Shown here in pieces: positions 1,131 through 57,841 of a stretch of 64,000 bases of DNA (position 1 is its first letter; each line of letters begins with the position of its first letter). The position numbers were made by a program, and so were the translations under genes. The DNA is from an uncultured Anaerolineales bacterium (GTDB lineage: Bacteria > Chloroflexota > Anaerolineae > B4-G1 > SLSP01): NCBI GenBank assembly GCA_964501335.1, contig CAZCTC010000036.1, positions 8,224-72,223 of the forward strand. The letters are read 5' to 3'. The notes beneath the pieces are model-generated. The model was not told the origin of the DNA and did not search any database. It saw nothing but the letters and a program-made list of their open reading frames with translations.

Positions 1131-1170
1131 GGTATTGGTCAAATGCACGCTTGCTTTAAGGAGGCCGGAA

Positions 1171-5584: not shown

Positions 5585-5710
5585 TTATTTGTTAAAAAGC
5601 GACGCGCTGGATGGGAAGAGAGAATTATTTTTTATTCATTTTTCGGCGGCTTCAGAAAGCCGCCGAAAAATGGCCTGTTCTTTCCCGTGTTTTCCGGGCT
5701 AACCGCACAG
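5585..5710 (+). repeat. Modular intergenic repeat element (forward orientation) with a 14-bp hairpin
   Basis: gacgcgctggatgggaagagag, then a T-rich stretch, then catttttcggcggc-ttcagaaa-gccgccgaaaaatg (5634..5669), then gcctgttctttcc, then ccgcacag. Confidence 0.85.
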
Positions 5711-6871: not shown

Positions 6872-7099
6872 AACCCAAGTTGCTACCTCGATAAATCCAG
6901 CCCATGATTCAAGATCCGCTGCATGCCGTCTAAAAGTAGACAGCAGCAAGTAGACAGTAGACAGCAAAAATCTTCGCCTTACCGGCTCAAATGGACTGGA
7001 AATCCGCTGTCTACTGTCTACCGTCTACTTTCTACTAAACCTTTGCATACAAAAAAGCTTAAATAGAAAGCACGTCTTTTAAAGGTAGCAACTTGGGTT
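6872..7099. mobile_element. MITE-like non-autonomous element with perfect 17-bp terminal inverted repeats
   Basis: aacccaagttgctacct at 6872..6888 is the exact reverse complement of 7083..7099. The interior holds inverted TGTCTAC-array modules (6935..6965 and 7006..7037) and no ORF. It sits 2 bp after the WD40 stop. Confidence 0.6.
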
Positions 7100-7227: not shown

Positions 7228-7230
7228 TTG

Positions 7231-7285
7231 CTGTCTACTGTCTACTTGCTACTGTCTACTTCTTCTTGCTACTGTCTACTTCTTC
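7231..7285 (+). repeat. TGTCTAC heptad direct-repeat array
   Basis: ctgtctactgtctacttgctactgtctacttcttcttgctactgtctacttc. Related arrays at 12411..12442, 39359..39390, 6935..6965 (reverse) and 7006..7037. Confidence 0.85.
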
Positions 7286-12327: not shown

Positions 12328-12410
12328 CATCATTTAAGTTTTACTGCATGCAAAAGATTAGTAAACAGGATTCAGCAGATGACAGATTTTCCACCCATTT
12401 GAGATCTACC

Positions 12411-12442
12411 TGTCTACTGTCTACTTGCTACTGTCTACTTCT
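12411..12442 (+). repeat. TGTCTAC heptad direct-repeat array, 18 bp upstream of phoU
   Basis: cctgtctactgtctacttgctactgtctacttc. Confidence 0.85.
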
Positions 12443-36522: not shown

Positions 36523-37590
36523 TTAAACCCTCGCCAGAAACTTCCGCACCTTTCTGAACGATTCTTCCCAGGTAGGATGCTTCGCATAACTTTTACAGGC
36601 CCCCAGGCTCAACTCCACTAAAAATTCCCGCTCCAACGCCAACGACAAAATATAACCGCCCAACCGATCGATATCCCCAGGCATGATCAAATACCCATTG
36701 TCCCCCGGTTTGATCAACTCATCCGCCCCTCCGGCCGTCGTCCCGATAGCCGGCAATCCCCACCCCATACCCTCCAGGTAGGCCAACCCAAACCCCTCAT
36801 AATAAGAAGGCATCACCAACAACTGGCTCCGGCGCAGATGGTAAGTCAGCGCCCGCCCGTCCAACCGCCCCCGAAAGAAGATCATATCTTCCACCTCCTC
36901 CCGCTCTGCCAGCTTTTTCAAAAACGCCACATAGCCCGGATCCAGATCCATCGATCCGACCAGATTAAGCTCCATCCAGGGAGGAATCGACCCCATAGCC
37001 TCGATCAGATCTGCCACCCCCTTCCGGGGGATCAGATTGCCCAGAAAAATCATCCGAAGCGGACAATTCACCTGGGCCCGGGCAGCGATCTCATCCGGCA
37101 TGACCTTCGCCCCATCGGCATCTCGCCCCGGATAGGCAATCGGACCCTGGATTCGCCGGCCGGCGGCCCGACTCACCGCCCGCCGCGTGGCCTTGCTGTT
37201 ATAAATACACCCGGTCATCTGTCGCAAATAGAGCCGTTCCACAAAACGATAGAACAACCGCAGCCCCCATGGATGCGGCTCGCAGGAACGCAAATGATGG
37301 ACCAAAGCAATCAACGGCACGCCGGTAGCCTGCAACTCTCGATTGACCGCCAGCAATGAGGGGTGACTCAACTCATCCTGAATCCACACCTCGATATCAG
37401 AACGCTGAAAAATCTCCCGCGTAGAAGCCGTAAAATTATCTTTCAGATGACGGGGGTAATCGCGTCCCGGCAGGCTGAAAATCTCCACCTCATCGCCTTG
37501 CGCCCGCAGATAAGAGACCAGCTGCCGATCGTAAAGATACCCCCCCGATACACTCTCCAGACCGTCATAGATAACCAACCCGATCTTCAC
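36523..37590 (-). CDS. GT4-family glycosyltransferase
   Basis: GTG start after AGGAG. EX7E-type motif EGFGLAYLEGMGWGLPAI. Its start overlaps the upstream gene's stop by 26 nt. Confidence 0.8.
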   Translation of the reverse strand: MKIGLVIYDGLESVSGGYLYDRQLVSYLRAQGDEVEIFSLPGRDYPRHLKDNFTASTREIFQRSDIEVWIQDELSHPSLLAVNRELQATGVPLIALVHHLRSCEPHPWGLRLFYRFVERLYLRQMTGCIYNSKATRRAVSRAAGRRIQGPIAYPGRDADGAKVMPDEIAARAQVNCPLRMIFLGNLIPRKGVADLIEAMGSIPPWMELNLVGSMDLDPGYVAFLKKLAEREEVEDMIFFRGRLDGRALTYHLRRSQLLVMPSYYEGFGLAYLEGMGWGLPAIGTTAGGADELIKPGDNGYLIMPGDIDRLGGYILSLALEREFLVELSLGACKSYAKHPTWEESFRKVRKFLARV

Positions 37591-37972
37591 GGCTCAACTC
37601 CTGATGGTAAGATGCCCACGCTTCAGAGTTCTCCCACAATTGCACGGTGATCGTCCGAAAAGAAATCGGACGCAAGGCTTCGATCATAGCCAGACAAAAA
37701 AATCGCGCCAGATGCTCCATACTGGGATTGAGATCCAAAAATTCAGGAAGCTCATTCAGCACCTGATTGGAATAATGCCCGATCAAAAGGAGCATCGCAT
37801 GTTCTACTCTGGTCAAATCGACCAGATAGCCATGCTCATCCAGATCCACCCCTTCCAACCGCACTTCAACCTGATAGGCATGGGCATGCAGCCGATTTTC
37901 AGCCCCCCACTCCCCGCCGATCAAAAAATGCCGCGCAATAAACGACTTCCGTAAACCAATCTGATACATCAT
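37565..37972 (-). CDS. 6-pyruvoyl-tetrahydropterin synthase/QueD-fold protein, divergent
   Basis: RBS GGAGAGG. PTPS fold motifs: F.ARHFL, then LHAHAY in place of LHGHSY, then ..NPS.E.LA. The catalytic Cys position (CGR before HGH in QueD) is absent. Confidence 0.6.
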   Translation of the reverse strand: MMYQIGLRKSFIARHFLIGGEWGAENRLHAHAYQVEVRLEGVDLDEHGYLVDLTRVEHAMLLLIGHYSNQVLNELPEFLDLNPSMEHLARFFCLAMIEALRPISFRTITVQLWENSEAWASYHQELSREDRVGYL

Positions 37973-38039
37973 TTCCTCTCCACTCAGATTAAAAAATTTA
38001 TATTTTCGCGCGCCCCCTCAAGGCACACGAAAATATAAA

Positions 38040-39074
38040 TCAATAAGAAAAAAGCAGTTGCAAAGTCTCCCCGGGCGCTTCATCCAGCAATCGATAAGCC
38101 TCCGCCGCCTGCGTGATCGGAAAACGATGGGAAATCAAAAAAGCCGGCCTTAACCGCGCCAGCAGCGTCCACGCCACCTCCCAACGGCGCGCCCGGCTCC
38201 AACGTCCGGTCAGCTCCGGCGCCAGCGTACTCACCTGACTGGTAAGCAACCGGATACGGCTGCGATGAAAAGCTCCCCCCAGATCCACAGCTGCCCGCCG
38301 CCCCCCATACCACGACCCCAGCACCACCCGCCCGGCAAAACCGGTCACAGCGAGGGCCTGATCCAGGGCCGCCGGCATCCCCGATAACTCATAGGTCAGA
38401 TCCGCATCGGCCGCACTTCCCGCCCCCTGCAAAGCCACCCGCACCGCCGCCTCGACCTCCGGCAACGTGGGATCAAAGGCCGCCTGAGCCCCCAGGGCCA
38501 GAGCCGCTTCCCGCCGACGAGAATAACGATCCAGCACCACCAGACTGGAAAAAGGCTGCCACGCCAACAAAGCCGTCGTCAACAAACCGACAATCCCCTG
38601 CCCAAAGACAGCAATCTGCTCGCCGGTCAGCGGCGCCCCATCCAGAAGCAAAGTAAGCGCCGTCTCCATGTTGGCCAGAAAAGTCGCCTCTTCCAGCGGC
38701 ACATCCTCCGGTACCGGCAGCAACGATGCCACCCCGGTCACAAAAAGGCCGGCATGCGGATGATAAACAAAGACAGACTGCCCTAACCAAACCGGATCGA
38801 CCTGCGCCCCAATCTCCACAACCTGCCCCACCAAAGCATAACCGTAAGCCAGAGGATAGGCCAGGGTTCCAGCCAGCGCAGAAATTTGAGTGTCGGCGGC
38901 CATCAAGGTGGGAGCCTCCCCACGGTAAATCAACATCTCAGTCCCCGCACTGATTGCAGAACAGACCGTTTTCACCACGACCTGCCCGATACCGGGCGGC
39001 GGCACCGATACCTCTCGCACCTCTACCTGCCGCGGCCCCGTGAAATACAAATCCAAAGACTTCCCGTTTCCCAT
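38040..39074 (-). CDS. MDR-superfamily zinc-type alcohol/polyol dehydrogenase-like oxidoreductase
   Basis: RBS AGGGGAG. Rossmann GxGxxG (VFGQGIVG). GroES-like N-terminal domain. Confidence 0.7.
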   Translation of the reverse strand: MGNGKSLDLYFTGPRQVEVREVSVPPPGIGQVVVKTVCSAISAGTEMLIYRGEAPTLMAADTQISALAGTLAYPLAYGYALVGQVVEIGAQVDPVWLGQSVFVYHPHAGLFVTGVASLLPVPEDVPLEEATFLANMETALTLLLDGAPLTGEQIAVFGQGIVGLLTTALLAWQPFSSLVVLDRYSRRREAALALGAQAAFDPTLPEVEAAVRVALQGAGSAADADLTYELSGMPAALDQALAVTGFAGRVVLGSWYGGRRAAVDLGGAFHRSRIRLLTSQVSTLAPELTGRWSRARRWEVAWTLLARLRPAFLISHRFPITQAAEAYRLLDEAPGETLQLLFSY

Positions 39075-39124
39075 CAATAAAATCCTTTTCTCCCCTTCTG
39101 TCCTGAAAATAGACCTCTATGGCA

Positions 39125-39300
39125 TGGCCCCGGCCTTGCCGCGTCCCGCAAATGGCCCTTTCCCCGTAAAAAACGACGCGCTGGATCGGAAGAGAGAGTT
39201 TTTTTGTTTATGTTTTCGGCGGCTTCGGAAAGCCGCCGAAAACATAGGCCTTTTCCTGAATCGCGTCGCTGCTTAACAACAAAACTAGGGAGAGGGGCAG
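39125..39300 (+). repeat. Complete modular intergenic repeat element (forward)
   Basis: gcgtcccgcaaatg, then aaacgacgcgctggatcggaagagagag, then T-rich, then atgttttcggcggc-ttcggaaa-gccgccgaaaacat (39210..39245), then aggccttttcc, then a tail. A tgtcctgaaaatag module precedes it and a TGTCTAC array follows at 39359..39390. Confidence 0.85.
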
Positions 39301-39400
39301 GGGTGAGGGCTAAACGCCAAAACATGTCCCTTTTCCAGAGCCGCCCCGGCGACACGGGCTGTCTACTGTCTACTTGCCGCTGTCTACTTCCGCTGAATTT

Positions 39401-40018
39401 TCATCCTTCAGGGTGCCGCTCCACCTTGATCCAGTGATGCATCCGTTCCACCTTCGTTTTCAAGTACACCAGATTCTCCGGCGTGACCATACAATCCAAC
39501 GGCACCCGCTCGACAATCTCAATACCCAAGGCCTGCAAATCCTCCATCTTGCCCGGATTGTTGGTCAATAACCGGATCGAAGACACCCCCAGATCCCGCA
39601 AAATGCACGCCGCCACCGTATAATCCCGACCATCCGCGGGATGCCCCAACACCAGATTGGCATCCACCGTGTCATACCCCTGGTCCTGCAAATTATAAGC
39701 ACGCAACTTCTCCGCCAGCCCGATCCCCCGGCCCTCCTGCCGCAGGTAAATCAAAATGCCCAGCCCCGCCGCAGCAATCAGCTGTAACGAACGATGCAGT
39801 TGCTCTCCACAATCACACCGGCGCGATCCCAACACATCCCCGGTAAAACATTCAGAATGCACTCGCACCAGAACACCACTTCTTCCAGCGACCTCGCCCA
39901 GGATCATCGCCAGATGCTCTTTCAAATCTCCAGCAGAAGAATAAAGGCACAATCTAAAAACACTGTTTTCAACAGGCAATCGAGCGCAAACCCGACAAGC
40001 AACCATCGATTCTTCCAT
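39401..40018 (-). CDS. ribA: GTP cyclohydrolase II
   Basis: RBS GGAGGG. Zinc-binding Cys in HSECFTGD..RCDCG. RQEGRGIGL, LTNNP. Near-collinear with E. coli RibA. Confidence 0.85.
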   Translation of the reverse strand: MEESMVACRVCARLPVENSVFRLCLYSSAGDLKEHLAMILGEVAGRSGVLVRVHSECFTGDVLGSRRCDCGEQLHRSLQLIAAAGLGILIYLRQEGRGIGLAEKLRAYNLQDQGYDTVDANLVLGHPADGRDYTVAACILRDLGVSSIRLLTNNPGKMEDLQALGIEIVERVPLDCMVTPENLVYLKTKVERMHHWIKVERHPEG

Positions 40019-40019
40019 C

Positions 40020-41015
40020 TCACTCCCTCCAGCGCAAAACCAGCTGGCTCCAGATCAGACCACCCATCCCCAACAGACTATCCCGAAGCCGCATCCAAAA
40101 GCTCAGGCCCAGCCCCACCGTTGCCAGTTTCCCCAACCAATCGATCGCCATTAACTGCCCTAGCTCCAAAGTTCCCCATCCGGGAGAAAACGGCAACATA
40201 AAAATAGAACGAGTCAAAATCAAGGCCCCAAAAGTATGTCCCCAATCGAGATAGATTCCCCAAAAAAAAAGTGCCAGCCAGTATTCCACGCCCATCGCCA
40301 CCCACACAACCCCAGAAAAGGCCAATGTAATTCCCACCCGCCAGGGAGAAGAACGGCAAAACTCGACCAGCCGGGATTCCGTTCCCTGTACCAGAGAACG
40401 CACCCGGACCCCCCGCTCCCCGCCCTCAGGGAAAGAATTCAGCAGGGTTGAAAGGGGAAAATAGCCCTTAAAAAGCAATCCGAGATATCCCACCGGCAGA
40501 ATCAACAGAAAAAGCGCCAACCAAAACCCTTTGACCGACACCCCTCCGGCAGAACCATAGAGCAGAATCCCCAACAGCCCCAGCGTCAGCACAGAAACAT
40601 TACAAATCAGCTCGATCAAACGGTCAAAAGCCGTCGCAGCGATCACTTCTTCCAGCGGAATCAACTGTAAACGATTCAAAAGGTAAATTTGAAAGGGATC
40701 TCCCATGACCGGCGGCCCGGGTGTGAAATAATTCAACCCAAAACCGGCCAACCGACACCCCAAAAGAAAACCCAGTGGAATCGCATACCCCTGCATCTGG
40801 AGAACCAATTGCCAGCGTATCACCATCAAAACAAAAATCCCTACATTGACACTGAAAAGCACCAGCAACCGCAACCATCCCAATTCGGCAAGCAGAGCCA
40901 CCAGAATTCCCGGCGAAATTCGATAGATCCCCCACCCCACCATCAACGGGATCAGCAACATGACCAATCCCCCCAACGACCTTATTCCACATTTCGTATT
41001 TTTAAACATACCCAT
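40020..41015 (-). CDS. UPF0104/flippase-like polytopic membrane protein (MprF N-terminal-like TM domain)
   Basis: Eight or more TM helices. Its stop abuts the ribA start (operon). Confidence 0.5.
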   Translation of the reverse strand: MGMFKNTKCGIRSLGGLVMLLIPLMVGWGIYRISPGILVALLAELGWLRLLVLFSVNVGIFVLMVIRWQLVLQMQGYAIPLGFLLGCRLAGFGLNYFTPGPPVMGDPFQIYLLNRLQLIPLEEVIAATAFDRLIELICNVSVLTLGLLGILLYGSAGGVSVKGFWLALFLLILPVGYLGLLFKGYFPLSTLLNSFPEGGERGVRVRSLVQGTESRLVEFCRSSPWRVGITLAFSGVVWVAMGVEYWLALFFWGIYLDWGHTFGALILTRSIFMLPFSPGWGTLELGQLMAIDWLGKLATVGLGLSFWMRLRDSLLGMGGLIWSQLVLRWRE

Positions 41016-41149
41016 CTATTTTATAGGCTTTTTTAAAAATGAAGGTTTATATTTTCCCCAAAACCCTTTACAAATAACCTAACTGATTTATAATCATTAG
41101 GCACGCCTTATAATTTTATATTTAAACCGAAACAGGGCAGGAGGCCAGC

Positions 41150-41572
41150 GTGGTCAGCGATCATTTTGAAGAATATCTCGGGGCTATCTTTCGGTTGCGC
41201 CATGATACCGACACAGCCCTCCCACTTTCACAGTTGCAACTCTATTTTGGCTACTCACCGATCTCCATCCATGAAATGGTCCAAAAGCTCACCACTCAAG
41301 GGTTGGTGACCTATCAGCCCTACCGCGGCGTCACCCTGACCCCCGACGGGGAACGCATCGGCATGGATCTGGTCCGGCGCCACCGCCTTTGGGAACGGTT
41401 CCTGACCGACCTGTTGGACTTCCCCGCCGACAGCGTTCACGAAATCGCCGGCCAGCTGGAACATGCCGCCCCCCAGGAAGTGACGGAACGGCTCGCCCGG
41501 CTCCTGGGCAACCCGGAAAACTGCCCCCACGGTGATCCCATCCCCCCCCGCCGGGAGGAACTATCACAATAA
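41150..41572 (+). CDS. DtxR/MntR-family metal-dependent transcriptional repressor
   Basis: GTG after AGGAGG. N-terminal helix-turn-helix, dimerisation and metal-site pattern (..HEIAGQLEH.., C-terminal NCPHGDPIP). Confidence 0.75.
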   Translation: MVSDHFEEYLGAIFRLRHDTDTALPLSQLQLYFGYSPISIHEMVQKLTTQGLVTYQPYRGVTLTPDGERIGMDLVRRHRLWERFLTDLLDFPADSVHEIAGQLEHAAPQEVTERLARLLGNPENCPHGDPIPPRREELSQ

Positions 41573-41586
41573 AAAATTCTCAACCT

Positions 41587-41990
41587 GTGCGGGTAACCTG
41601 GAAAACGAGTGAAAAAAATTCTCTTCCAGCCCGCGCAGCGCTTCTTACCAGGAAGACACCTTCAGCGGGACGCAAAAATACCGCCCGCATGAATAAAACA
41701 GTTGGTGCGAAAAATGGGAGAAAAAAAGCCCGCGAAAACATAAATAAAAATTTCTCTCTATCCAGCGCGGCGCTTCTTACCGGGCAAAAGCCATTTGCGG
41801 GACGCTAAAATGCCGCCCACAGGGATAAAACAATGGATGCTAAAAAACGAGAAACAAAGAGCCCGCGAAAACATAAATAAAAATTTCTCTCTCTATCCAG
41901 CGCGGCGCTTCTTACCGGGCAAAAGCCATTTGCGGGACGCTAAAACGATCCCCATTCACATAGAAATAAAGCGGTTTAACCGGAGGTAAT
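41587..41990. repeat. Tandem array (~2.5 copies of 132-139 bp) of the modular element in reverse orientation, filling the feoAB upstream region
   Basis: Units begin tccagcgcggcgcttcttaccgggcaaaagccatttgcgggacgctaaaa.. at about 41624, 41763 and 41895. Confidence 0.85.
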
Positions 41991-41995
41991 ACAAC

Positions 41996-44209
41996 ATGAT
42001 CCCCTTGATCGGACTCGAACCAGGGAAAATCGGCATGGTACGGCGACTCGAAGGCGAACACGGCCTCGTAGCCCGTCTGGCCGCACTGGGCTTCACCCCC
42101 GGCGCAGCCGTCACCATCACCCGCAACGACGGCCACGGCCCCATCATCGTCTCCCTGCGCGGCGCCCAGGTCGCCCTGGGCCGCGGTGAAGCTTCCCGCG
42201 TCATCGTCACCCCCGCCCCGCTGCAGGATTCCATCCCCCAGATCGGAGAACGGACCCGGGTGATCGCCCTGGCCGGTCAGCCCAATGTCGGCAAATCGAC
42301 CATCTTCAACCTCCTCACCGGCCTCAACCAGCATGTCGGCAACTGGGCCGGCAAAACCGTCGAACAAAAAACCGGCATCTTCGCCTATGGTGAAGCCCGC
42401 TACTCCCTGGTCGACCTGCCCGGCGCCTACAGCCTGACTGCCAATTCAGAAGAAGAACGTATTGCCCGCGACTTCATCATCCGCGAGCGCCCCGATGTCG
42501 TCGTGGCCGTCGTCGATGCCGCCACCCTGGAACGCAGCCTCTACCTGCTCTCCGAACTGTTGCTCCTGCCGGCTCCCGTCGTCCTGGCCCTCAATATGAT
42601 CGATGTCGCCGAGCGCGAAGGCATCCAGATCGAGCCCCAGGTACTCTCGGCCGCCCTGGGCATCCCGGTCGTCCCCATGGCCGCCGCTCGCGGCTCCGGC
42701 GTCCGCGAAATGGTCGAGACCGTCAACCGCCTCATCAACGACGAATTGACCTACGAGCCGCGCCGCCCTACCATCCTGCCGGCCCATCAAATGGTCCTGG
42801 CCGAACTGATGACGCTGATCGTTCCCTACGTCCCCGAACCCTACCCCGCAGATTGGGCCACGCTCAAACTGCTGGAGGGCGACGAAGAAATCGCCGCCAT
42901 GTTGCAGGCCGACCTTCCCCCCGAAATCTGGGAAAAGGTCCACGCCATCCTCTATCAACATGAAGATGCCATTCTGGATATCGCCGGCGCCCGCTATGAA
43001 TGGGTTGCTCGCATGGTCCGCGCCGCCGTCGTCCAGCCTCGCGTCGGGCGGCTGGGCATCACCGCCCGGCTGGACCGCGTCCTCACCCATCCCGTCTGGG
43101 GCCTGATCTTCCTGGCCGGCATCCTCGGCACACTCTTCACCCTCACCTATAGCCTGGGCACCCCTATCCAGGATTTCCTGGAAGCGCAAATCTATGCCCT
43201 CTCCGGCTGGATTCATGCCACGCTGACCACACCCACCTGGTTCACCGCCCTCCTGGCCGACGGTTTGATCGGCGGCGCCGGACTGGTCGTCACCTTTTTG
43301 CCTATCCTGGTAATCTTCTTCACCGCCCTGGCCCTGCTCGAAGACACCGGCTATATGGCCCGCATCGCCTATCTGATGGACCGAATCATGCACATGATGG
43401 GATTACACGGCAAAAGCTTCCTGCCGTTGTTGCTGGGCTTCGGCTGCAATGTACCGGGAATCATGGGCACACGGATCATCGAATCCCGCCGGGCCCGCTT
43501 CTTCACCCTGATGCTGACCCCGTTGATCCCCTGCACCGCGCGCATGGCCGTGGTCGCCCTGCTGGTCCCGGTCTTCTTCGGCGCCAACGCCGGCTGGATC
43601 GCCTGGGCCCTCGTCATGATGAACCTGCTCCTGCTGGTCGGGCTGGGCATCTTCTTCCACCATTTCTTCTTCAAGGGCGAAACCGTCGCCTTTGTGATGG
43701 AGCTGCCGCTCTACCATCAGCCTAACCTGCGAACCATCGGACTCTACGTCTGGCGCAACACCCTGGCATTCCTGAGCAAAGCCGGCACCGTCATCCTGGG
43801 AGCCTCCATCGCACTCTGGGCGCTCTCCTATTTCCCCAACGGAAACGTCGATACCAGCTACCTCGCCGCCTTCGGACACACCCTGGAACCGCTGGGTAAT
43901 CTGATCGGTCTGCCCTGGCCGCTGTTGGTTTCATTGATCACCAGCTTCATCGCCAAAGAAAACACCATCGCCACGCTGGGAGTCCTCTACGGCGACTATG
44001 CCAACGTCCTGCCGACCATCCTCACTCCGCCGGCAGCCCTGGCCTTCCTGGTGATTCAAATGCTCTTCATTCCCTGTATCGGCACCGTCGCCGCCATCAA
44101 ACAGGAAACCAAATCCTGGCGCTGGGCCTTGCTGAGTGTGACGCTCTTCCTGGGGCTCTCCCTGGGAATCGGAATGCTTATCTATCAAATCGGAAGTCTT
44201 TTTTTATAA
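41996..44209 (+). CDS. feoB: Ferrous iron transporter, FeoA-FeoB fusion
   Basis: RBS GGAGG. N-terminal FeoA SH3-like domain. G-domain GQPNVGKST, DLPG. Polytopic C-terminus. 737 aa. Confidence 0.9.
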   Translation: MIPLIGLEPGKIGMVRRLEGEHGLVARLAALGFTPGAAVTITRNDGHGPIIVSLRGAQVALGRGEASRVIVTPAPLQDSIPQIGERTRVIALAGQPNVGKSTIFNLLTGLNQHVGNWAGKTVEQKTGIFAYGEARYSLVDLPGAYSLTANSEEERIARDFIIRERPDVVVAVVDAATLERSLYLLSELLLLPAPVVLALNMIDVAEREGIQIEPQVLSAALGIPVVPMAAARGSGVREMVETVNRLINDELTYEPRRPTILPAHQMVLAELMTLIVPYVPEPYPADWATLKLLEGDEEIAAMLQADLPPEIWEKVHAILYQHEDAILDIAGARYEWVARMVRAAVVQPRVGRLGITARLDRVLTHPVWGLIFLAGILGTLFTLTYSLGTPIQDFLEAQIYALSGWIHATLTTPTWFTALLADGLIGGAGLVVTFLPILVIFFTALALLEDTGYMARIAYLMDRIMHMMGLHGKSFLPLLLGFGCNVPGIMGTRIIESRRARFFTLMLTPLIPCTARMAVVALLVPVFFGANAGWIAWALVMMNLLLLVGLGIFFHHFFFKGETVAFVMELPLYHQPNLRTIGLYVWRNTLAFLSKAGTVILGASIALWALSYFPNGNVDTSYLAAFGHTLEPLGNLIGLPWPLLVSLITSFIAKENTIATLGVLYGDYANVLPTILTPPAALAFLVIQMLFIPCIGTVAAIKQETKSWRWALLSVTLFLGLSLGIGMLIYQIGSLFL

Positions 44210-44224
44210 AAATTCTCTTGCGAT

Positions 44225-44380
44225 TAGTATTTTAACGTCCCGCAAAAAGCTTTAGTTCGGCTCGAAGCGACACGCTGAATGGGTAGAAAGAGATTTTTTA
44301 ATCATTTTTTCGGCGGCTTCAGAAAACCGCCGAAAAAATGGGCTTTTCTTTCAAAAAACACCCTGGGTGACGCAACAACA
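44225..44380 (+). repeat. Modular intergenic repeat element (forward) between feoB and the feoC-like gene
   Basis: ttttaacgtcccgcaaaaag..gcgacacgctgaatgggtagaaagag, then cattttttcggcggc-ttcagaaaa-ccgccgaaaaaatg (44303..44340), then ggcttttctttc. Confidence 0.85.
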
Positions 44381-45920: not shown

Positions 45921-48900
45921 TTAACCTTTCCGCATGACAGCCGGCAGATAGACTCGATAGGTGCGGAAGGTCGCCGTGACCGCCTTCGGCCCATCCATCG
46001 TCACCGTCACGACCGGCACCGCCGCCGTGACCGCCCCGCTCCAGCCGCCGAAGGAAACGGTCCTGGTCGTCGTCGCGCTCAACGTCACCACCGTCCCCGC
46101 CGTAAAGGTCGCCTGACAGGTGCCGCTGGAACAGTTCACGCCGGCCGGCAGACTGGTCACCAGCCCCGTCCCCTCGCCCGTCAGCGTCACCGTCAGCGTA
46201 TAGAGGTTCATCGCAAACGCAGCCGTGATCGTATGGTTCGCCATAACGTTGGTAAAGGTGTAGGCGTTCACCGCCCCCACCGTACTGCCGTCCACCCGCA
46301 CATCCACGATGTGATAACCGGTGCTGGGGCTGATCGTAAAGACCGCACTGCCGCCGTGATTCACCGTCTGCGGCGTGCTGGGACTGATCGAACCGTTCGC
46401 CCCGGCCGTCGGCGTGATCGTATAAATGTTGATCGCAAACGCAGCCGTGATCGTATGGTTCGCCGTGACGTTGGTAAAGGTGTAGGCGCTCACCGCCCCC
46501 ACCGTACTGCCGTCCACCCGCACATCCACGATGTGATAACCGGTGCTGGGGCTGATCGTAAAGACCGCACTGCCGCCGTGATTCACCGTCTGCGGCGTGC
46601 TGGGACTGATCGAGCCGTTCGTCCCGGCCGTCGGCATGATGGTATAAGTGTTGATCGCAAACGCAGCCGTAATGGTGTGGTTCGCCGTGACGTTAGTGAA
46701 AGTATAGGCGCTCACCGCCCCGACCGTGCTGCCGTCCACCCGCACATCCACAATGTGATAACCGGTACTCGGACTGATCGTAAAGACCGCACTGCCGCCG
46801 TGATTCACCGTCTGCGGCGTGCTGGGACTGATCGAACCGTTCGCCCCGGCCGTCGGCGTGATCGTATAAATGTTGATCGCAAACGCAGCCGTGATCGTAT
46901 GGTTCGCCGTGACGTTGGTAAAGGTGTAGGCGCTCACCGCCCCCACCGTGCTGCCGTCCACCCACACATCCACAATGTGATAACCCGTGCTCGGGCTGAT
47001 CGTGAAGGAAATCGTGCTGCCGTAATTCACCACCGTCGGCACGGCCGGACTGAGCGAACCGTTCGCCCCGGCCGTCGGCGTGATGGTGTAGGTGTTGATC
47101 GCAAACGAGGCCGTGACGGCTTTAGCTGTCGTCATTGTGAACACCTGGGGATTGCCGGTACCGCTCAAATCGCCGCTCCACCCGCTAAAGGTCGAACTGA
47201 TCAGCGGTGTCGCAGTCAGGGTGACCACAGTACCGGGCAAGAAACCATAAGTACAGGTGATTCCACAATTGATCCCGGCCGGATTGCTGGTCACATTGCC
47301 GATTCCCATACCGCTGAAATTAAGATTCAACAGCAGATAGGGTGATTCGTACGCTCCCGCATCGACGCTGTCACCGACAATCCGGACATTGCCGTCCAGA
47401 TCAGTCATCATGGTAACGCTGAGACTGTTTCCGGCATCGATCGCCGGCGAAACCATCTGCAAACGATAATCGCCGGTCGTGGTAGGAGCCGCCGTGGCAA
47501 TAATCGGCGTGGCGAACTTCGGATCGCTATACCGCATCCCGGTACCGCAGGTCGTTCCGGAAGGACAGCTTCCCTGAAGCACCGAAGAACTCAGCGCAGC
47601 CGTACCATTGTTGTTGTAAATTTCCGCCCCCGTCGTGGCGCTGTCGCCCCAAAAGATCGTGTTAACCGCAGTGGCCACACTGCCGGACCCATAATTATGA
47701 ATCGCGCCGCCCTGGCCGGCCCGGTTGCCGGCAAAGGTGACATTGAGCAAGCGCGGCGTCACGCTGCCGGAATAGCCGTTGTTGTAAATTCCACCGCCGC
47801 TGGAGCTGCCGTAGTTACCGCTGAAGAGTACGTTGATCAACACCGGGCTGCTGCTCCCCTGATAGCCATAGTTGTCCAGCCCGCCGCCATAAGCCGCCTG
47901 ATTGCCGCGGAAGATCACATGGGTCAATATCGGGCTGCTGACCCCGTTTCCGCCGTCGTTATACATCCCACCGCCGCTGCTGGCGCTCTGATTGCCGCTG
48001 AAGATCACATGGGTCAACTGCGGACTGCTGGTGCCGGAGCTGCCGTTGTTGTAAAGGCCGCCGCCGTAGGAAGCAGCCCGGTTTCCACTGATCGTCAGAT
48101 TGGCAAGGGTCGGACTGCACGCTTTGCCGCTGCCGTTGCCGGCGCAGTAGATCCCCCCGCCCGAATCGTTCGGAGCCGTGCCGGCCGCATTGCCTCCGGT
48201 AACGGTAAAGCCGTCGATCACCGTGGTCCCGGTAATCAGGCCGTTCGTCACCCCGTCCAGATAAAACACATGATAGGCATTGTTGGTCGCCAGCCCGTTT
48301 TTATCGATATCCCCGCTGAGGATGGTCGGATGCGCCGTCCAGTTGCGCTCGGAACGCTGCGTCTCGGTGGCGGCAAAACCGCCGTAAAGTTGCACATTGT
48401 TCCGATTGATCCGGAAAGTCTCCGTCAAGGCATTGTTCACATGCCCCGCGCCCTCATCGGGATAATAAGTTCCCTCAGCCACCCAGATCTCATAAGTCGA
48501 AGAGACATGCGCATGGGTCCAGGCCAGCGCCTCCTGCACATTGGTATAAGCGGTGCTCCAGGAAAGGCCGTCGGGAGTGCCGGTCGCATCCCTGTCGACA
48601 TAGAAAACATGGGCTTCGTAGGCTCCCCGATCCACCAGCGGAGCCGTGCCGTTGCCGGTATCGGCAGCCGGCATATCGACTTTGCGGGCCCAGCCATCCC
48701 GATCTGTCCCCGCCGGCACAACGTTATTGTCACCGGAATCGATCGCAGGCGACGTTAAACGCAAACGATAATTGCCGCTTGTTGTAGGAGCCGCCGTGGC
48801 GGTAATCGGCATAATAAATAAGGGATCGGTATAAAGCATCCCAGATCCACAACTCGCCAGGTCCGGACAGCCTCCCTCAATCGTACTGTAACTGATCACC

Positions 48901-50513
48901 GGGTAAGTGGCATTAAAATTGTAAGTGTAAATCTGCGCCCCCGCCCCCCCGGCCGTATTCCCCCACAAAATACTGTTTTGCAATGCCGGCTGGCTACCCC
49001 AATAACCATTGCCGTAAAGCACCATAGCGCCGCCATTTACCGCGGCCCGATTTCCACTGAACGTCAGATTGGTCAACACCGGATAGGCAGCAGTCCAGGC
49101 AGCATAGGCAAGAATTCCCAATCCCCCACCCTCGTTGGCCTGATTTCCACTGAAAACCACGTTGTTCAATACCGGATTACCATCTCCGGTACCCACCAGA
49201 AGGGCTCCCCCCCCAGTCCCTCCGGCCATATTGTTGAGAAAGGTTACATTATCCATCCGGAGATAACTGATAGATCGAACCGCATTATTGATCAGCCCAC
49301 CGCCCCCCTCAGTAGATCGGTTGCCGGTAAAAACAACATCCTTCAAATAGGGGCTCAAGACAGCTCCGTCCGTTATCCCGTAATCAGTAGCGAGGCCACC
49401 TCCATTAGTAGCCTGATTGCCGCTGAAAACTACATGAGAAATCGTAGGGCCACAGACCGGACCAGCAGAATAGCAATAAAGGCCCCCACCCCGATCCTGC
49501 CAATATCCCCCATCTGCCTGTCCCCCTGTCAGCGTAAAGCCGTCGATGACCGTAGTCGGACCAATACTGGATGAATACGCCCTTAGAGAAAAAATGTTAT
49601 AGGCATTGCCGCCCACAATATCGTTCCAGGTTTCATTAATGAAATTGCCGTCTGTGTTAATGTCATTTCTCTCGACATCCCCACTAAGAATCGTCGGATG
49701 GGCCACCCAATCACGTTGGTCCAACCGGGTCTCGTTCCCGGCAAACCCGCCGTAAAGCAAAAAACCATCCACATCCTCAATCCTGAAAGTGGCATTCCGG
49801 CCATCCCCTTCTGGATAGTAGACCCCCTCCGCCACCCAGATCTCCTCATCGGTCCCGGTATGATAAGCTATAGCCGTCGTCAGAGAAGTATAGGCATTCT
49901 GCCAGGAAAGCCCGGTTCCGGTGCCGGTCGCATCTTTATCGACATAATAGATCGGCCGGATCGCATACTCGAAGTAAGCGCCGTCCGATTCGGTCCAGGA
50001 AGTCTCATACTGACTGGCGTTGCGATCGGCGACCGTGCCGGAAACGCGGCCAGAACTGGTCGCCAATGTGCCGTTGCTGATATAGAAAATGTATTTGACC
50101 GTGGTACCGTAAGGCTGCGGCGGCACGCTCGCCACCCAGATCCGGTTGGGATCGCTGTATCTGGAGAAAGTAGCCGTCACCGCCGTCCCGTTGGTCTTGG
50201 TAGGATTGCTGCCGTCCGTTGTATAGACCAGATAGACTGTTTTGCCGGTCGTATCGAAAGCAAAATTGACATAGAGATCGGCCGTATCGTCGAAATGGAT
50301 CATCGAGCTGGAAAAATCAAGGCGCCCGGAGGCCTGCCGGTAATTAGGGGCTACCGTATAGGGGTGAAGATGCGTGCCGTCGGTATAACCGATCGACTCG
50401 CCGGGGAAGTGTCCCGTCCCGCTCCAGGCTCCCACGACGGGAACCAGGACCAATAAGAAGGCCAGCATGGCCATCCAGACACTGAACTTAAGGCTGCCGC
50501 GTATCAGCTTCAT
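45921..50513 (-). CDS. Giant secreted beta-helix (pectin-lyase-fold/Pmp-like) adhesin-like protein with C-terminal tandem domain repeats
   Basis: ATG at 50513 after AAAGGA. Signal peptide. Repeated GG(G/A)(L/I)(Y/H)N..G/...SGN(Q/R)A parallel beta-helix units. C-terminus has four near-identical 74-aa domains plus two diverged flanking copies (InlB B-repeat-like). Confidence 0.8.
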   Translation of the reverse strand: MKLIRGSLKFSVWMAMLAFLLVLVPVVGAWSGTGHFPGESIGYTDGTHLHPYTVAPNYRQASGRLDFSSSMIHFDDTADLYVNFAFDTTGKTVYLVYTTDGSNPTKTNGTAVTATFSRYSDPNRIWVASVPPQPYGTTVKYIFYISNGTLATSSGRVSGTVADRNASQYETSWTESDGAYFEYAIRPIYYVDKDATGTGTGLSWQNAYTSLTTAIAYHTGTDEEIWVAEGVYYPEGDGRNATFRIEDVDGFLLYGGFAGNETRLDQRDWVAHPTILSGDVERNDINTDGNFINETWNDIVGGNAYNIFSLRAYSSSIGPTTVIDGFTLTGGQADGGYWQDRGGGLYCYSAGPVCGPTISHVVFSGNQATNGGGLATDYGITDGAVLSPYLKDVVFTGNRSTEGGGGLINNAVRSISYLRMDNVTFLNNMAGGTGGGALLVGTGDGNPVLNNVVFSGNQANEGGGLGILAYAAWTAAYPVLTNLTFSGNRAAVNGGAMVLYGNGYWGSQPALQNSILWGNTAGGAGAQIYTYNFNATYPVISYSTIEGGCPDLASCGSGMLYTDPLFIMPITATAAPTTSGNYRLRLTSPAIDSGDNNVVPAGTDRDGWARKVDMPAADTGNGTAPLVDRGAYEAHVFYVDRDATGTPDGLSWSTAYTNVQEALAWTHAHVSSTYEIWVAEGTYYPDEGAGHVNNALTETFRINRNNVQLYGGFAATETQRSERNWTAHPTILSGDIDKNGLATNNAYHVFYLDGVTNGLITGTTVIDGFTVTGGNAAGTAPNDSGGGIYCAGNGSGKACSPTLANLTISGNRAASYGGGLYNNGSSGTSSPQLTHVIFSGNQSASSGGGMYNDGGNGVSSPILTHVIFRGNQAAYGGGLDNYGYQGSSSPVLINVLFSGNYGSSSGGGIYNNGYSGSVTPRLLNVTFAGNRAGQGGAIHNYGSGSVATAVNTIFWGDSATTGAEIYNNNGTAALSSSVLQGSCPSGTTCGTGMRYSDPKFATPIIATAAPTTTGDYRLQMVSPAIDAGNSLSVTMMTDLDGNVRIVGDSVDAGAYESPYLLLNLNFSGMGIGNVTSNPAGINCGITCTYGFLPGTVVTLTATPLISSTFSGWSGDLSGTGNPQVFTMTTAKAVTASFAINTYTITPTAGANGSLSPAVPTVVNYGSTISFTISPSTGYHIVDVWVDGSTVGAVSAYTFTNVTANHTITAAFAINIYTITPTAGANGSISPSTPQTVNHGGSAVFTISPSTGYHIVDVRVDGSTVGAVSAYTFTNVTANHTITAAFAINTYTIMPTAGTNGSISPSTPQTVNHGGSAVFTISPSTGYHIVDVRVDGSTVGAVSAYTFTNVTANHTITAAFAINIYTITPTAGANGSISPSTPQTVNHGGSAVFTISPSTGYHIVDVRVDGSTVGAVNAYTFTNVMANHTITAAFAMNLYTLTVTLTGEGTGLVTSLPAGVNCSSGTCQATFTAGTVVTLSATTTRTVSFGGWSGAVTAAVPVVTVTMDGPKAVTATFRTYRVYLPAVMRKG
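46215..47105. repeat. Four near-identical 222-bp in-frame tandem repeats inside the adhesin gene
   Basis: ggtaaaggtgtaggcg recurs at 46251 and 46473, and further units follow with the same period. More than 95% nucleotide identity between units. Confidence 0.9.
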
Positions 50514-50599
50514 CACAGTTCCTTTCTATGAACGAATATGATGCATCTCCCAACACTCAAATTATAAGCACAAAGTGTGACAGAAGTGTTAATCATCAG

Positions 50600-54824: not shown

Positions 54825-54990
54825 AGGCATTGTAGCGTCCCGCAAATGATCCCTTCCCGGCCCGATGCGACGCGCTGGATGGGAAGAAGAGTTTTTTGGT
54901 GGTGTTTTTGCGCGCATAAGAATGCGCGCAAAAACACAAGCTTTTTTCTCTGCGCCCTCGGCGCCTTTGCGGTGAAATCTGAGTGAATTA
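54825..54990 (+). repeat. Modular intergenic repeat element (forward) with a GCGCGC-core hairpin
   Basis: gtagcgtcccgcaaatgatccc..gcgacgcgctggatgggaagaagag, then gtgtttttgcgcgc-ataagaat-gcgcgcaaaaacac (54902..54937), then aagcttttttctc, then gcgccctcggcgcc. Confidence 0.85.
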
Positions 54991-55087: not shown

Positions 55088-56071
55088 CTATGGAACTGTG
55101 ATCCGGAATTTTTCCACCAGCCGCTCAGGATAATAAGACTCCTTGGCCTGACGCAGCCCGGGATCCCCCAAATCCTGTTCCCGGTTGATAAACTCCACCT
55201 CGCCCCAGCATTGCTCGCAAAAGCGCTGATTGACCATCGCATAAAGCCCCTGAATATCGGGATCGGCCTTCTCAATATGGATCACGGCCGTCGTCGGGTT
55301 GATCTTTTCCCCCACCGTGAACGCCACAATTTCCCCCCGCAGGTAAATCACGCCGCCCGAAAGCTGGAGTTCGGCAAAATTCTCCAGAGCCGACTCCACC
55401 GCTTCCAGCTCGCCCAGCAAATCCATATCGTCCTCGCAGCGGTTCATACAATACCACTGGCGGGCCACAGCTCGACAGGCCTCCATATGCTCGGGCGTCA
55501 ATGCCGTGTAGATAAAATCGGGATAAGCTTCCATAAAGTGCTTCAAATGGTTGCGCTTGCGGTGATACTTACGGCCGGCCAGCTTGATAAGGTCTTCGCT
55601 GCGATAAATATAATCGAATTGATCGCGGGTAGGCTCAATCGTCAGATCCGCCGCCCCGTCAAATTCATCGGCCAAAGCCCGTTCGGCCCGTTCAATGCGC
55701 GGTACGGCAATCTCCGGCTGAGTGCGCATCCAATCCAACAAAAAACGCACCACTTCCTGACGCGGAGCAGGCCCAATCGGAGGATAAAAATAAATCCCCC
55801 CGGCATCCTGGCTCTGTAACAACAGCCAATCCCGGTAAATCGACCAGTTAAGGCCGCCTGATTTACGCCAGATAAAAAGATTGGTAAAACTCAGCTCGGA
55901 AATTTCCGGCGGATAACGAGTCAGATATTCCTGGAACAGGTCGCGGTCCTGCAATTCTATGGCTTTAAAATTGGGAAACTCAGGAATCATTCCCACTCCT
56001 TCAATGTCTACCACATCGCAAAAGAGACCCGGCAGCCAAAGCGGCCGCCGGGCTAATTCCATCTTCAACAC
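55088..56071 (-). CDS. DUF2156 protein (MprF C-terminal lysyl-PG-synthase-like/GNAT-fold domain), standalone
   Basis: TTG after GGAGG, or ATG 9 nt later. 327 aa. Confidence 0.5.
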   Translation of the reverse strand: MLKMELARRPLWLPGLFCDVVDIEGVGMIPEFPNFKAIELQDRDLFQEYLTRYPPEISELSFTNLFIWRKSGGLNWSIYRDWLLLQSQDAGGIYFYPPIGPAPRQEVVRFLLDWMRTQPEIAVPRIERAERALADEFDGAADLTIEPTRDQFDYIYRSEDLIKLAGRKYHRKRNHLKHFMEAYPDFIYTALTPEHMEACRAVARQWYCMNRCEDDMDLLGELEAVESALENFAELQLSGGVIYLRGEIVAFTVGEKINPTTAVIHIEKADPDIQGLYAMVNQRFCEQCWGEVEFINREQDLGDPGLRQAKESYYPERLVEKFRITVP

Positions 56072-56080
56072 TGCCTCCGT

Positions 56081-57841
56081 CTATTCGACGATACGAATGT
56101 GCAAATCTCTTAACTGCCGTTCGGAAGCGGGCGAAGGCGCATCCGCCATCAAATCCGCCGCCTGGGTGGTCTTAGGGAACGCAATCACCTCACGGATGCT
56201 GGTCTCATCAGAGAGCAGCATCACCAGCCGGTCGATCCCGGGAGCCATCCCGCCGTGCGGCGGAGCGCCGTAAGAGAAGGCGTCCAGCATGTGACCGAAG
56301 CGCGCCCGGATCTCTTCCTCGGGATATCCCAGCACCTTGAAAATCGCCATCTGGATCTCAGGATCGTGGATACGGATCGAGCCGGAAGCCAGTTCATAAC
56401 CGTTGCAAACCAGATCGTAAGCATCGGAAAGCACCGCCAACGGATCTTTCATCATCTCTTCATAAGTATTGGGCCGGGGCATCGTAAAGGGATGATGCGC
56501 CGCATCCCAGCGTTCTTCCTCGGCGTTCCACTCGTACATCGGGAAATCCAGCACCCAGCCGAAGGCCATCAAATTCGGATCGGCCAGCTTCAGCCGATCC
56601 CGGAAGGTCAAACGCAGCGCCGAAAGCGCCGGACCCACCACCTTAGGCTGATCGGCAACGATACAGACCAGATCGCCATCGTGCGCGCCCATCTGCCCGG
56701 CAATGGCTTTCAATTCATCCGGCGTGAGGAATTTCACCGCCGGCCCCTTCACCTCGCCCGGCAGGAATGCCAGCGTCACCAGGCCCTTGGCCCCCTGCCC
56801 CTTGGCAATCTCGGTCAATTCGTCGAGCTGCCGGCGCGTATATTCCGCACAGCCCGGCGCCACAATCCCCTTGATCCGTCCGCCGCCGGCTGCCGCCTGC
56901 TGGAAGACCGCAAAGCTGCTGCCGCTCAGCAAGGGAGTCAGCTCCTGCAATTCCATGCCAAAGCGCAGATCGGGCTTATCGACCCCGTAGCGCTCGATCG
57001 TCTCACGGTACGAAAGGCGGGGGAACGGCGAAAGCACACGTTTGCCGGGCGTCACGGCCGGGATCATCTCCGTAAAGAGCCCTTCCACAATCTCCAACAG
57101 ATCATCGCGTTCCACAAAGGACATTTCCATATCGAGCTGCGTGAACTCAGGCTGGCGATCCCCGCGCAGATCTTCATCGCGGAAACAGCGAGCAATCTGG
57201 AAATAACGCTCGTAGCCGGCCACCATCAACAGCTGCTTCAACTGCTGCGGCGACTGGGGCAGCGCATAGAAATCGCCAGGATGAACCCGGCTGGGAACAA
57301 GATAGTCACGGGCACCCTCGGGCGTCGATTTGAAAAGGATCGGCGTCTCGATTTCCAGGAAACCCAACTTCTCCAGATAATCGCGGATGAATTTCACCAC
57401 ATGGTGGCGCAAAATGATATTACGCTGCATCCGCGCCCGCCGCAGGTCCAGATAACGGTAGCGCAGGCGAAGCGCCTCATCTACCGGAGAATCCTCATAA
57501 ATATAGAAGGGAGTTGTACGCGACGTATTAAGAATCTTGATCGAGTGGGCCTCGACTTCGATCTCACCGCTGGCCCAATCGGGATTGACCTGATCGATCG
57601 GCCGGCGGCGCACAATTCCGCGTACCTGCACCACAAACTCACTGCGCACCTGATCGGCGACCGCATGGGCCTCCGGCGCCGCATCCGGGCTGGCGACAAC
57701 CTGGGTCAGTCCCCAGCGGTCGCGCAGGACGATAAAAATCAATCCGCCATGATCCCGCCGCCGGTTGACCCACCCGGCCAGCGTGACTTCCTGGCCCTCA
57801 TGTTCCGCTCGCAATTCTCCACAGGTGCGGTTTTTCAACAT
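56081..57841 (-). CDS. aspS: Aspartate--tRNA ligase
   Basis: RBS GGGGGAGG. N-terminal OB-fold (..[26 protein letters not shown]), class II motifs, GAD insertion. 586 aa. Confidence 0.95.

Follow-up and report, generated by a model that had tools for sequence, protein, structure and literature searches.

A five-gene locus with GTP cyclohydrolase II in an Anaerolineales genome is a reduced version of a larger gene cluster found in several phyla

Does a ribA gene that lies beside genes for a glycosyltransferase, a membrane protein and a relative of the pterin synthases serve riboflavin synthesis or another pathway? The question is raised by a stretch of 64,000 nucleotides (nt) from an uncultured Anaerolineales bacterium (GenBank contig CAZCTC010000036.1), the whole of which is called the window below. 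Its minus strand carries five intact open reading frames (ORFs) between positions 36523 and 41015. In the direction of transcription, these encode a flippase-like membrane protein of the LPG_synthase_TM/UPF0104 type (331 amino acids [aa]; 40020-41015; PF03706, E value 1.1e-21), a stand-alone GTP cyclohydrolase II (205 aa; 39401-40018; PF00925, E 2.8e-65), a BchC-like medium-chain dehydrogenase/reductase (MDR; 345 aa; 38040-39077; ADH_zinc_N, E 1.8e-8), a T-fold protein resembling type IV 6-pyruvoyltetrahydropterin synthase (PTPS-IV; 135 aa; 37565-37972; PF01242, E 2.6e-25) and a family 4 glycosyltransferase (GT4; 355 aa; 36523-37590; PF00534 [Glycos_transf_1], E 2.7e-27). The stop of the membrane protein gene is 1 nt from the start of ribA, a spacer of 323 bp (39078-39400) follows ribA, 67 bp separate the MDR and PTPS-like genes, and the PTPS-like and GT4 genes overlap by 26 nt. 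All five genes, the overlap and the abutting UPF0104 gene had been proposed in an original prediction made from the letters of the sequence, and their positions and domains were borne out with Pfam and NCBIfam; an independent gene caller gave identical calls on an identical public Logan contig of 25.9 kb. An exact look-up of the 135-aa PTPS-like protein gave no match, and that of a 134-aa form of it matched solely the identical Logan contig.

Conservation of the cluster across genomes

The original prediction named conservation of the gene set as its test and chance adjacency as one of the results that would overturn it. A pattern scan of species-representative genomes gave at least 577 loci with a relative of the PTPS-like protein, and the best 80 of these were analyzed with 10-kb flanks by tblastn and all-against-all ORF clustering. 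The counts given below refer to the 55 loci that were well flanked, with at least 5 kb upstream and at least 3 kb downstream. The GT4 gene followed the PTPS-like gene in 54 of the 55 loci and the MDR gene preceded it in 47, while a RibD_C pyrimidine reductase (PF01872, E 1.3e-43, above the TIGR00227 cut-off) was present in 41, an S-adenosylmethionine (SAM)-dependent methyltransferase of approximately 280 aa followed the GT4 in 38, and GTP cyclohydrolase II was present in 29, fused to the reductase in 11 of them. A small membrane protein with a weak DUF7475 match (22 loci), LPG_synthase_TM (19 loci) and a CDP-alcohol phosphatidyltransferase (18 loci) also recurred. The common order was CDP-alcohol phosphatidyltransferase, flippase-like protein, small membrane protein, cyclohydrolase II, reductase, MDR, PTPS-like protein, GT4 and methyltransferase, and the genes of the window stand in this same order. 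The loci came from Anaerolineae, Caldilineae, Ardenticatenia, Thermoflexales, Dehalococcoidia, Desulfomonilaceae, Binatia and Gammaproteobacteria, with co-linear clusters also in an Acidoferrum metagenome-assembled genome (MAG) and in Streptomyces. Chance adjacency therefore fails as an explanation, since the same order recurs across several phyla, and the five genes of the window are a reduced version of a larger cluster of up to ten genes. Nor is the set without precedent, being the Chloroflexi-type version of the cluster that contains SCO6650 and SCO6655 in Streptomyces coelicolor.

The composition of the cluster varied among the loci. The genes for CDP-alcohol phosphatidyltransferase and LPG_synthase_TM lay upstream or downstream of the core, and on the same strand or the opposite one, depending on the phylum, and in some loci the pair lay downstream on the opposite strand, indicating that its linkage to the core survives rearrangement. 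Ten loci from Desulfomonilaceae and related bacteria held a core of reductase, MDR, PTPS-like and GT4 genes without an adjacent cyclohydrolase II and always adjoined tsaE, an aspartate kinase gene and an isopropylmalate/citramalate-synthase-like gene; of the two enzymes, the reductase is thus the more constant one. A less common variant, seen in six loci, was without both cyclohydrolase II and reductase and had a ComB-like gene of the 2-phosphosulfolactate phosphatase family between the MDR and PTPS-like genes, often with genes for a PIG-L deacetylase and an RDD-domain protein nearby. Neighbors encoding a DUF427-like protein, small membrane proteins, an ABC transporter, LspA and RluD were judged to be lineage-specific synteny. 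The Chloroflexi-type T-fold protein is encoded by at least 577 species-level genomes and the actinobacterial type is far more numerous, with at least 8,000 proteins scored; NCBIfam release 20.0 holds no specific model for any protein of the cluster.

Among known systems, the SCO6650-SCO6655 region of S. coelicolor comes closest, and it was represented in the comparison by a Streptomyces locus with a PTPS homologue 98% identical to SCO6650. This locus has genes for a CDP-alcohol phosphatidyltransferase, a BchC-like MDR, the PTPS homologue, a GT4, a methyltransferase-like protein, LPG_synthase_TM (E 5e-32) and cyclohydrolase II, seven families that also occur in the relatives, and its T-fold gene is immediately followed by the GT4 gene and preceded by the MDR gene. 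The MDR, cyclohydrolase and PTPS-like proteins of the window match their Streptomyces counterparts, identity to the Streptomyces system being only 26 to 28%, and the two GT4 proteins are 28% identical over approximately 320 aa, including the N-terminal SGG.YDR motif; no BLASTP similarity was found between the two flippase-like proteins, though both match PF03706. Compared to a full cluster of the SCO6650 type, the window has the MDR, T-fold and GT4 core, cyclohydrolase II and LPG_synthase_TM but not the CDP-alcohol phosphatidyltransferase or the methyltransferase. The Streptomyces cyclohydrolase also differs from the window enzyme in having Met (RAMALQ) where the latter has Tyr at the switch position, and a creatininase-family gene (E 4e-67) accompanies it, a partner with no equivalent in the window. 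Owing to this Met, SCO6655 is said to stop at the formylated pyrimidine (work of Spoonamore and coworkers, reportedly in Biochemistry in 2006). Parts of the system were studied in S. coelicolor from 2006 to 2008 and its core was flagged by neighborhood networks in 2017. Literature searches on SCO6650, SCO6655 and combinations of the families, from which most subscription papers were outside, found no paper describing a product of the cluster and none placing CDP-alcohol transferase, GT4, methyltransferase and flippase-like genes in one unit.

Properties of the cluster proteins

The window cyclohydrolase scored above the curated cut-offs of both TIGR00505 (239.6 versus 205.85) and PRK00393 (252.2 versus 148). 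We took Escherichia coli RibA as the reference, in which Cys54, Cys65 and Cys67 form the zinc site and Tyr105 directs formation of the diaminopyrimidine product. Equivalents of all four residues were present in the window enzyme and in each of the 38 cluster copies aligned with it, confirming the intact Cys triad of the original prediction and adding the Tyr, which the 2006 work of Spoonamore and coworkers reportedly identified as the determinant of the diaminopyrimidine product. By this alignment, the window enzyme and the 38 others are of the canonical type. The best 120 relatives of the window cyclohydrolase were all stand-alone PF00925 proteins with no RibBA fusion among them, and the three of these that were looked up, one from the Acidoferrum MAG, all sit in the same cluster. 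A stand-alone clade inside the cluster indicates that the window ribA is a paralogue dedicated to this system, as opposed to a riboflavin gene that has strayed there.

Other evidence on the riboflavin question came from the partners of the cyclohydrolase. The cluster RibD_C proteins of relatives passed the TIGR00227 cut-off (156.7 and 163.3 versus 150.15) with no deaminase domain alongside, and a tblastn search of the whole 64 kb gave no RibD_C homologue. No ribD, ribE, ribH, ribB, fol or que genes were detected among the window ORFs scanned, with three very large ORFs left unscanned, and the earlier statement that no other riboflavin, folate or queuosine genes are present holds within that scope. 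A riboflavin operon was rejected because no rib partners are adjacent. We consider it very probable that the cluster serves a dedicated GTP-derived pathway unrelated to riboflavin, and a ribA gene in such a setting should not be taken as a sign of riboflavin capacity when the metabolism of MAGs is reconstructed. The original prediction had proposed a GTP-derived glycosylated metabolite or envelope modification in place of riboflavin, and this part of it stands, in view of the conserved cluster, the stand-alone cyclohydrolase clade and the recurring membrane genes; the recurrence of CDP-alcohol phosphatidyltransferase and flippase-like genes in particular supports an envelope role. Its toxoflavin and deazaflavin options were dropped, as no ToxA, ToxC, ToxD or FbiC/CofGH-type partner was found among the conserved neighbors of 82 loci or the scanned ORFs of the window.

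The T-fold protein departs from its characterized relatives at the active site. Its His15, His29 and His31 align with the QueD zinc ligands His16, His31 and His33. As had been noted from the sequence, HAH (His29-Ala-His31) replaces the HGH of QueD and the catalytic Cys27 is lost, its position being taken by Glu25; Plasmodium PTPS, judging from structure entry titles, likewise carries a catalytic-site Glu. Also absent is the Asp-His pair of the catalytic triad, with Ser/Asn in the window protein and Arg/Asp in the family. Across 81 relatives, His15, Trp22, Gly23, Glu25, Asn26, His31, His47, Asp52, Glu86 and Glu114 were invariant, and His29 was present in 74 with Asn in the remaining 7. Retention of a predicted zinc His triad together with an invariant Glu at the catalytic-Cys position is newly seen in this subfamily. 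An AlphaFold (AF2) model with a predicted local distance difference test (pLDDT) score of 81.6 gave a T-fold with the strand (E) and helix (H) order E-E-H-H-E-E, which Foldseek matched to PTPS and QueD structures with a probability of 1.00. The best structural match was SCO6650 (3D7J), with a template modeling (TM) score of 0.81 and 28% identity, ahead of the QueD and PTPS structures, and SCO6650 was also the best sequence match in the PDB (E 5e-16). Its aligned HES motif marks Glu114 as a candidate anchor of the 2-amino-4-oxopyrimidine ring. Taken together, these comparisons show a T-fold protein with a probable metal site.

We compared these features to the named PTPS families. PTPS-I/QueD was rejected, since Glu25 stands in place of the Cys of CxxxHGH and the TIGR03367 score was 42.8 against a cut-off of 89.25 bits, with the NCBIfam cut-off for PTPS not reached either; a queuosine role was rejected for the missing Cys, the score below the cut-off and the absence of queC and queE. 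PTPS-II, with a CxxxxxHGH motif and a Cys-Asp-His triad, fails for lack of the Cys. The PTPS-III motif is ExxHGH (PMC5041015), and the window protein reads E-N-R-L-H-A-H, with the Glu one residue further from the His pair; with the motif out of register and no folK or folP neighbor, a folate bypass by PTPS-III was set aside as well. For PTPS-IV of COG0720, the signature is FGPAQ (PMC5041015) and the neighbors found by neighborhood networks are PF00925 and PF01872 (PMC5445326). The PTPS-IV signature, in the form [FW]GP[AE][QN], occupies the same position in the fold as the corresponding stretch of the window protein, just before the His pair. Literal FGPAQ does not occur, the window protein having WGAEN (EWGAEN) and all 81 relatives WG[AP]EN (DWG[AP]EN). 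By relationship, the protein falls closest to SCO6650, and the PF00925 and PF01872 neighborhood is found in its relatives, with PF01872 absent in the window. SCO6650 itself has FGPAQ..HGA and has lost the third zinc His (QueD His33), whereas the window family has WG[AP]EN..H[SA]H with the His triad and Glu and, compared to the PTPS-IV cluster, normally has a reductase within the cluster. We therefore file the window family as a new variant of the PTPS-IV-type cluster, outside any characterized PTPS family.

The MDR protein has BchC as its best NCBIfam match (75.8 bits versus a cut-off of 291), and its PDB relatives are threonine, butanediol, sorbitol and galactitol-1-phosphate dehydrogenases. 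Zinc-dependent alcohol dehydrogenases carry the metal-ligand motifs CGSDxH and GHE; at these places the family consensus reads SAISxGTE and GYA, so the protein is predicted to be a zinc-less, BchC-like secondary-alcohol dehydrogenase. For the flippase-like protein, the TIGR00374 score of 37.8 bits was below the cut-off of 43.2. It is not an MprF, as the 331-aa protein has only PF03706 and no LPG_synthase_C synthase domain. A stand-alone LPG_synthase_C/DUF2156 gene (55088-56071, minus strand; E 8.9e-52) lies 14 kb away, directly downstream of an aspartyl-tRNA synthetase gene (56081-57841, minus strand). This pairing recalls tRNA-dependent aminoacyl-lipid synthases such as the fungal ErdS fusion, and by analogy the two genes could make an aspartylated lipid.

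A proposed pathway and its alternatives

The conserved unit joins a canonical GTP cyclohydrolase II, a pyrimidine reductase without a deaminase, a T-fold protein and a GT4, and we propose the following pathway for it. Cyclohydrolase II would convert GTP to 2,5-diamino-6-ribosylamino-pyrimidinone 5'-phosphate, which in the relatives RibD_C would reduce to the ribitylamino form without deamination. The BchC-like dehydrogenase would then re-oxidize one of the secondary hydroxyls on the side chain, the simplest candidate being the 2'-OH; MDR enzymes oxidize ribitol 5-phosphate at C2. Such an oxidation would give an Amadori-type ketone like that formed inside GTP cyclohydrolase I, and its spontaneous closure would yield a pterin resembling 7,8-dihydroneopterin-3'-phosphate. 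Glu114 of the T-fold protein would anchor the 2-amino-4-oxopyrimidine ring while the protein remodels the side chain with the help of zinc and Glu25, and the GT4 would add a sugar. In the full cluster, the methyltransferase would methylate the product, the CDP-alcohol phosphatidyltransferase would join the polyol phosphate to a phospholipid and the flippase-like protein would move it across the membrane. In the variant with ComB-like and PIG-L genes, N-acetylglucosamine (GlcNAc) could be transferred to a phosphorylated acceptor and the product dephosphorylated and deacetylated, following the logic of mycothiol synthesis; the GT4 of the Streptomyces cluster has MshA as its best NCBIfam match, in line with this logic.

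Two known systems make parts of this scheme plausible. In Chlamydia, the Amadori isomerase TrpF turns the product of cyclohydrolase II into dihydroneopterin monophosphate (PMC4161248). This is the same entry, from the cyclohydrolase II product to a pterin with GTP cyclohydrolase I bypassed, and it indicates that the proposed chemistry is feasible. The two differ in that the chlamydial isomerase is a TIM-barrel protein that feeds folate synthesis, whereas in the window-type cluster the reductase and dehydrogenase are proposed to produce the same ketone, and a glycosyltransferase and membrane proteins stand beside them in place of folK or folP. A cyclohydrolase II route is missing from a 2026 review of bacterial pterins. 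That the membrane genes recur in distant phyla suggests a membrane linkage, by analogy with the synthesis of phosphatidylinositol (PI), phosphatidylinositol mannosides (PIM) and glycosylphosphatidylinositol (GPI). Pathways for PI-based glycolipids include mycobacterial PgsA1-PatA-PimA and the PIG-A/PIG-L steps of GPI synthesis, and the cluster draws on the same enzyme families, with a CDP-alcohol phosphatidyltransferase, a GT4 that in those pathways works on the head group, an acyltransferase, PIG-L (in the variant) and a putative flipping step. In the cluster, the alcohol would be derived from GTP and not be inositol, and of these parts the window holds only the GT4 and the flippase-like protein.

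Our overall model, that the window carries a pared-down form of a widespread cluster which uses GTP as its starting material and makes a sugar-bearing, membrane-linked pterin or pyrimidine product, is tentative, and we place it a little below an even chance. Its most specific form, a new class of membrane glycophospholipid with a head-group alcohol built from GTP (a pterin or diaminopyrimidine polyol phosphate) that is glycosylated, methylated and flipped by the UPF0104 protein, is unlikely to be correct in full. If true, a redox- and light-active pterin would be displayed on the cell surface of Actinobacteria, Chloroflexota and others and a second pterin route, independent of cyclohydrolase I, would exist. 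Solving the cluster would give a function to genes now misannotated as "6-carboxytetrahydropterin synthase," "zinc-binding dehydrogenase" and "GTP cyclohydrolase II" and could uncover a so far unrecognized way of making pterins from GTP, perhaps together with a new lipid head group.

Several observations weigh against this model, and they are given here and in the next section beside the alternatives on which they bear. No product is known for any member of the cluster, and we infer all of the chemistry after the reductase; that the product is a pterin is likewise something we infer. An LPG_synthase_TM or CDP-alcohol phosphatidyltransferase gene, moreover, was within 10 kb in only 21 of the 55 loci. 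The remaining 34 fit a soluble glycosylated pterin comparable to cyanopterin, tepidopterin or solfapterin, made by way of cyclohydrolase II instead of I, with the membrane genes being unrelated or serving export only. We regard this as possible but rather doubtful. The most invariant pair of the cluster, PTPS-like and GT4 (54 of 55 loci), and the methyltransferase that follows the GT4 in 38 loci are in keeping with such a product, as cyanopterin is a methylated glycoside of 6-hydroxymethylpterin, and the variant with a ComB-like phosphatase and PIG-L would suit glucosamine (GlcN) glycosides of the solfapterin type. The pteridine glycosyltransferases BGluT (5ZE7) and CtPGT are GT-B enzymes of approximately 350 aa that glycosylate the pterin side chain (PMC5683033, PMC4133829). 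The window GT4 shows a weak likeness to the tetrahydrobiopterin glucosyltransferase 5ZE7 (E 8.8e-8), which is confined to the C-terminal domain, ranks 15th among the PDB matches and is weaker than that to several unrelated GT4 enzymes, so close orthology was set aside as unlikely; BshA, MshA and sucrose-phosphate synthase are closer. Also at odds with a soluble glycoside are the 1-nt distance between the flippase-like gene and ribA in the window and the recurrence of CDP-alcohol phosphatidyltransferase and LPG_synthase_TM with the core, despite rearrangement, in Chloroflexota, Binatia, Gammaproteobacteria, the Acidoferrum MAG and Streptomyces.

The role of the T-fold protein in the proposed pathway meets two further difficulties. 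In a 2008 paper in Acta Cryst F by Spoonamore and coworkers, SCO6650 is said to be without zinc, catalytic triad and PTPS activity while keeping the pterin-binding residues, and on this account the T-fold protein may not be a conventional catalyst. A review ties PTPS-IV to F420 synthesis, citing unpublished work (PMC5041015). This link would agree with an alternative in which the cluster provides a reduction-first route of the archaeal or fungal type to a riboflavin or F420 precursor, with the T-fold protein serving as the pyrimidine deaminase and the GT4 and remaining genes serving another function. A RibD_C without a deaminase domain is found in archaea as well, the phyla with the cluster overlap those known to make F420, the three His zinc ligands and invariant Glu would form a plausible hydrolytic site, and the ComB-like phosphatase of the variant could supply the missing phosphatase step. 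We nevertheless consider this route decidedly improbable. No FbiC/CofGH, ribE, ribH or ribB is conserved in the cluster or present in the scanned ORFs of the window, the tightest partner of the T-fold gene is the GT4 gene, which often overlaps it, and bacteria of these phyla normally have a complete RibD. In addition, the zinc site is reportedly lost in SCO6650, yet a near-identical Streptomyces protein occurs in the same context.

The missing reductase, repeats and hairpins of the window copy

The other observations that weigh against the proposed pathway concern the window copy itself. A cyclohydrolase II without a reductase was seen in none of the 29 relatives with this enzyme, and the window is the sole case. 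In the relatives, approximately 700 bp between the cyclohydrolase II and MDR genes are filled by the reductase gene, and no remnant of it was detectable in the 323-bp spacer of the window. No homologues of the cluster methyltransferase or CDP-alcohol transferase, nor of the small membrane protein, acyltransferase or ComB, were found in the 64-kb window. With reductase, methyltransferase and phosphatidyltransferase not within 64 kb, the pathway either relies on genes elsewhere or is truncated. The PTPS-like protein departs from 6 of 45 conserved columns and the flippase-like protein from 8 of 29, more than in any relative, and the local copy could thus be decaying. Finally, a palindrome in the gap between the MDR and PTPS-like genes (37996-38040, minus strand; -27.7 kcal/mol, z -6.9) is followed on the coding strand by UUUUUUAAU, a U-run, and looks like an intrinsic terminator.

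The spacer at 39078-39400 is a mosaic of short repeats shared with at least seven other intergenic places of the window; pieces of it recur at 699-778, 2026-2074, 5593-5669, 6934-6965, 7230-7262, 12410-12441 and 44307-44336. The original prediction had seen a repeat element between ribA and the dehydrogenase gene, and such repeats are indeed present in the form of this mosaic, to be corrected in that they mark the site of RibD_C in the relatives. The spacer is best read as a scar or filler at a place where the reductase gene was lost or never inserted. It also holds a perfect 17-bp palindrome (39209-39246; -28.3 kcal/mol), which lacks a U-run on the coding strand. Every gap contains strong palindromes of a common design, in which A/T-rich arms flank a GCGC core, and two of them lie 3' of the GT4 gene (36394-36517, minus strand), at 36480-36517 (-26.9 kcal/mol, followed by a U-run) and 36394-36438 (-32.9 kcal/mol), where they likely mark the end of the transcription unit. 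These hairpins make co-transcription of all five genes doubtful. The safe units are the two tightly coupled pairs, flippase-like protein with ribA and PTPS-like protein with GT4.

The loss of a reductase that the relatives have, the repeats that fill its place, the hairpins that break the gene string and the departures from conserved columns all suit a further alternative, in which the window copy is a decaying remnant whose pathway no longer works and whose ribA may add to the riboflavin supply. This is quite unlikely in our judgment. None of the five reading frames is broken, most departures are conservative, the catalytic residues are kept, and the translational coupling signals of a 26-nt overlap and a 1-nt gap are retained. 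The Streptomyces locus is also without RibD_C within 10 kb, and the missing genes could lie outside the 64 kb.

Short palindromic repeats are dispersed in many other gaps of the window, including 41760-41940 and 54868-54948, several with energies of -27 to -33 kcal/mol. They are similar to repetitive extragenic palindromes (REP) or miniature inverted-repeat transposable elements (MITE) and may also act as terminators. Divergent from the cluster, the plus strand at 41150-44209 carries a DtxR/MntR-type metal repressor (41150-41572) and a FeoB-like ORF (737 aa; 41996-44209), the latter named by its sequence alone; this linkage to the cluster is not kept in the relatives. Promoter-like sites at 41067-41114 in the 134-bp divergent region are on the plus strand. 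The GC skew of the plus strand is approximately -0.2 across most of the window regardless of gene orientation and is unusually strong for a bacterial chromosome. The three very large ORFs (1,858, 1,211 and 1,531 aa) lie within 15514-24661 on the plus strand and 45921-50516 on the minus strand. At 25903-27530 on the plus strand, a gene for a 294-aa reverse transcriptase (RVT_1, E 5.4e-13) directly follows an SPFH/Band_7 gene and may encode a retron or defense-type enzyme. Two weak matches were to domains typical of eukaryotes, one to MVP_shoulder of the major vault protein (31296-32777, minus strand; E 5e-6), flagged on the identical contig too, and the other to the N- and C-terminal domains of AAR2 (1135-1956, plus strand; E approximately 2e-6).

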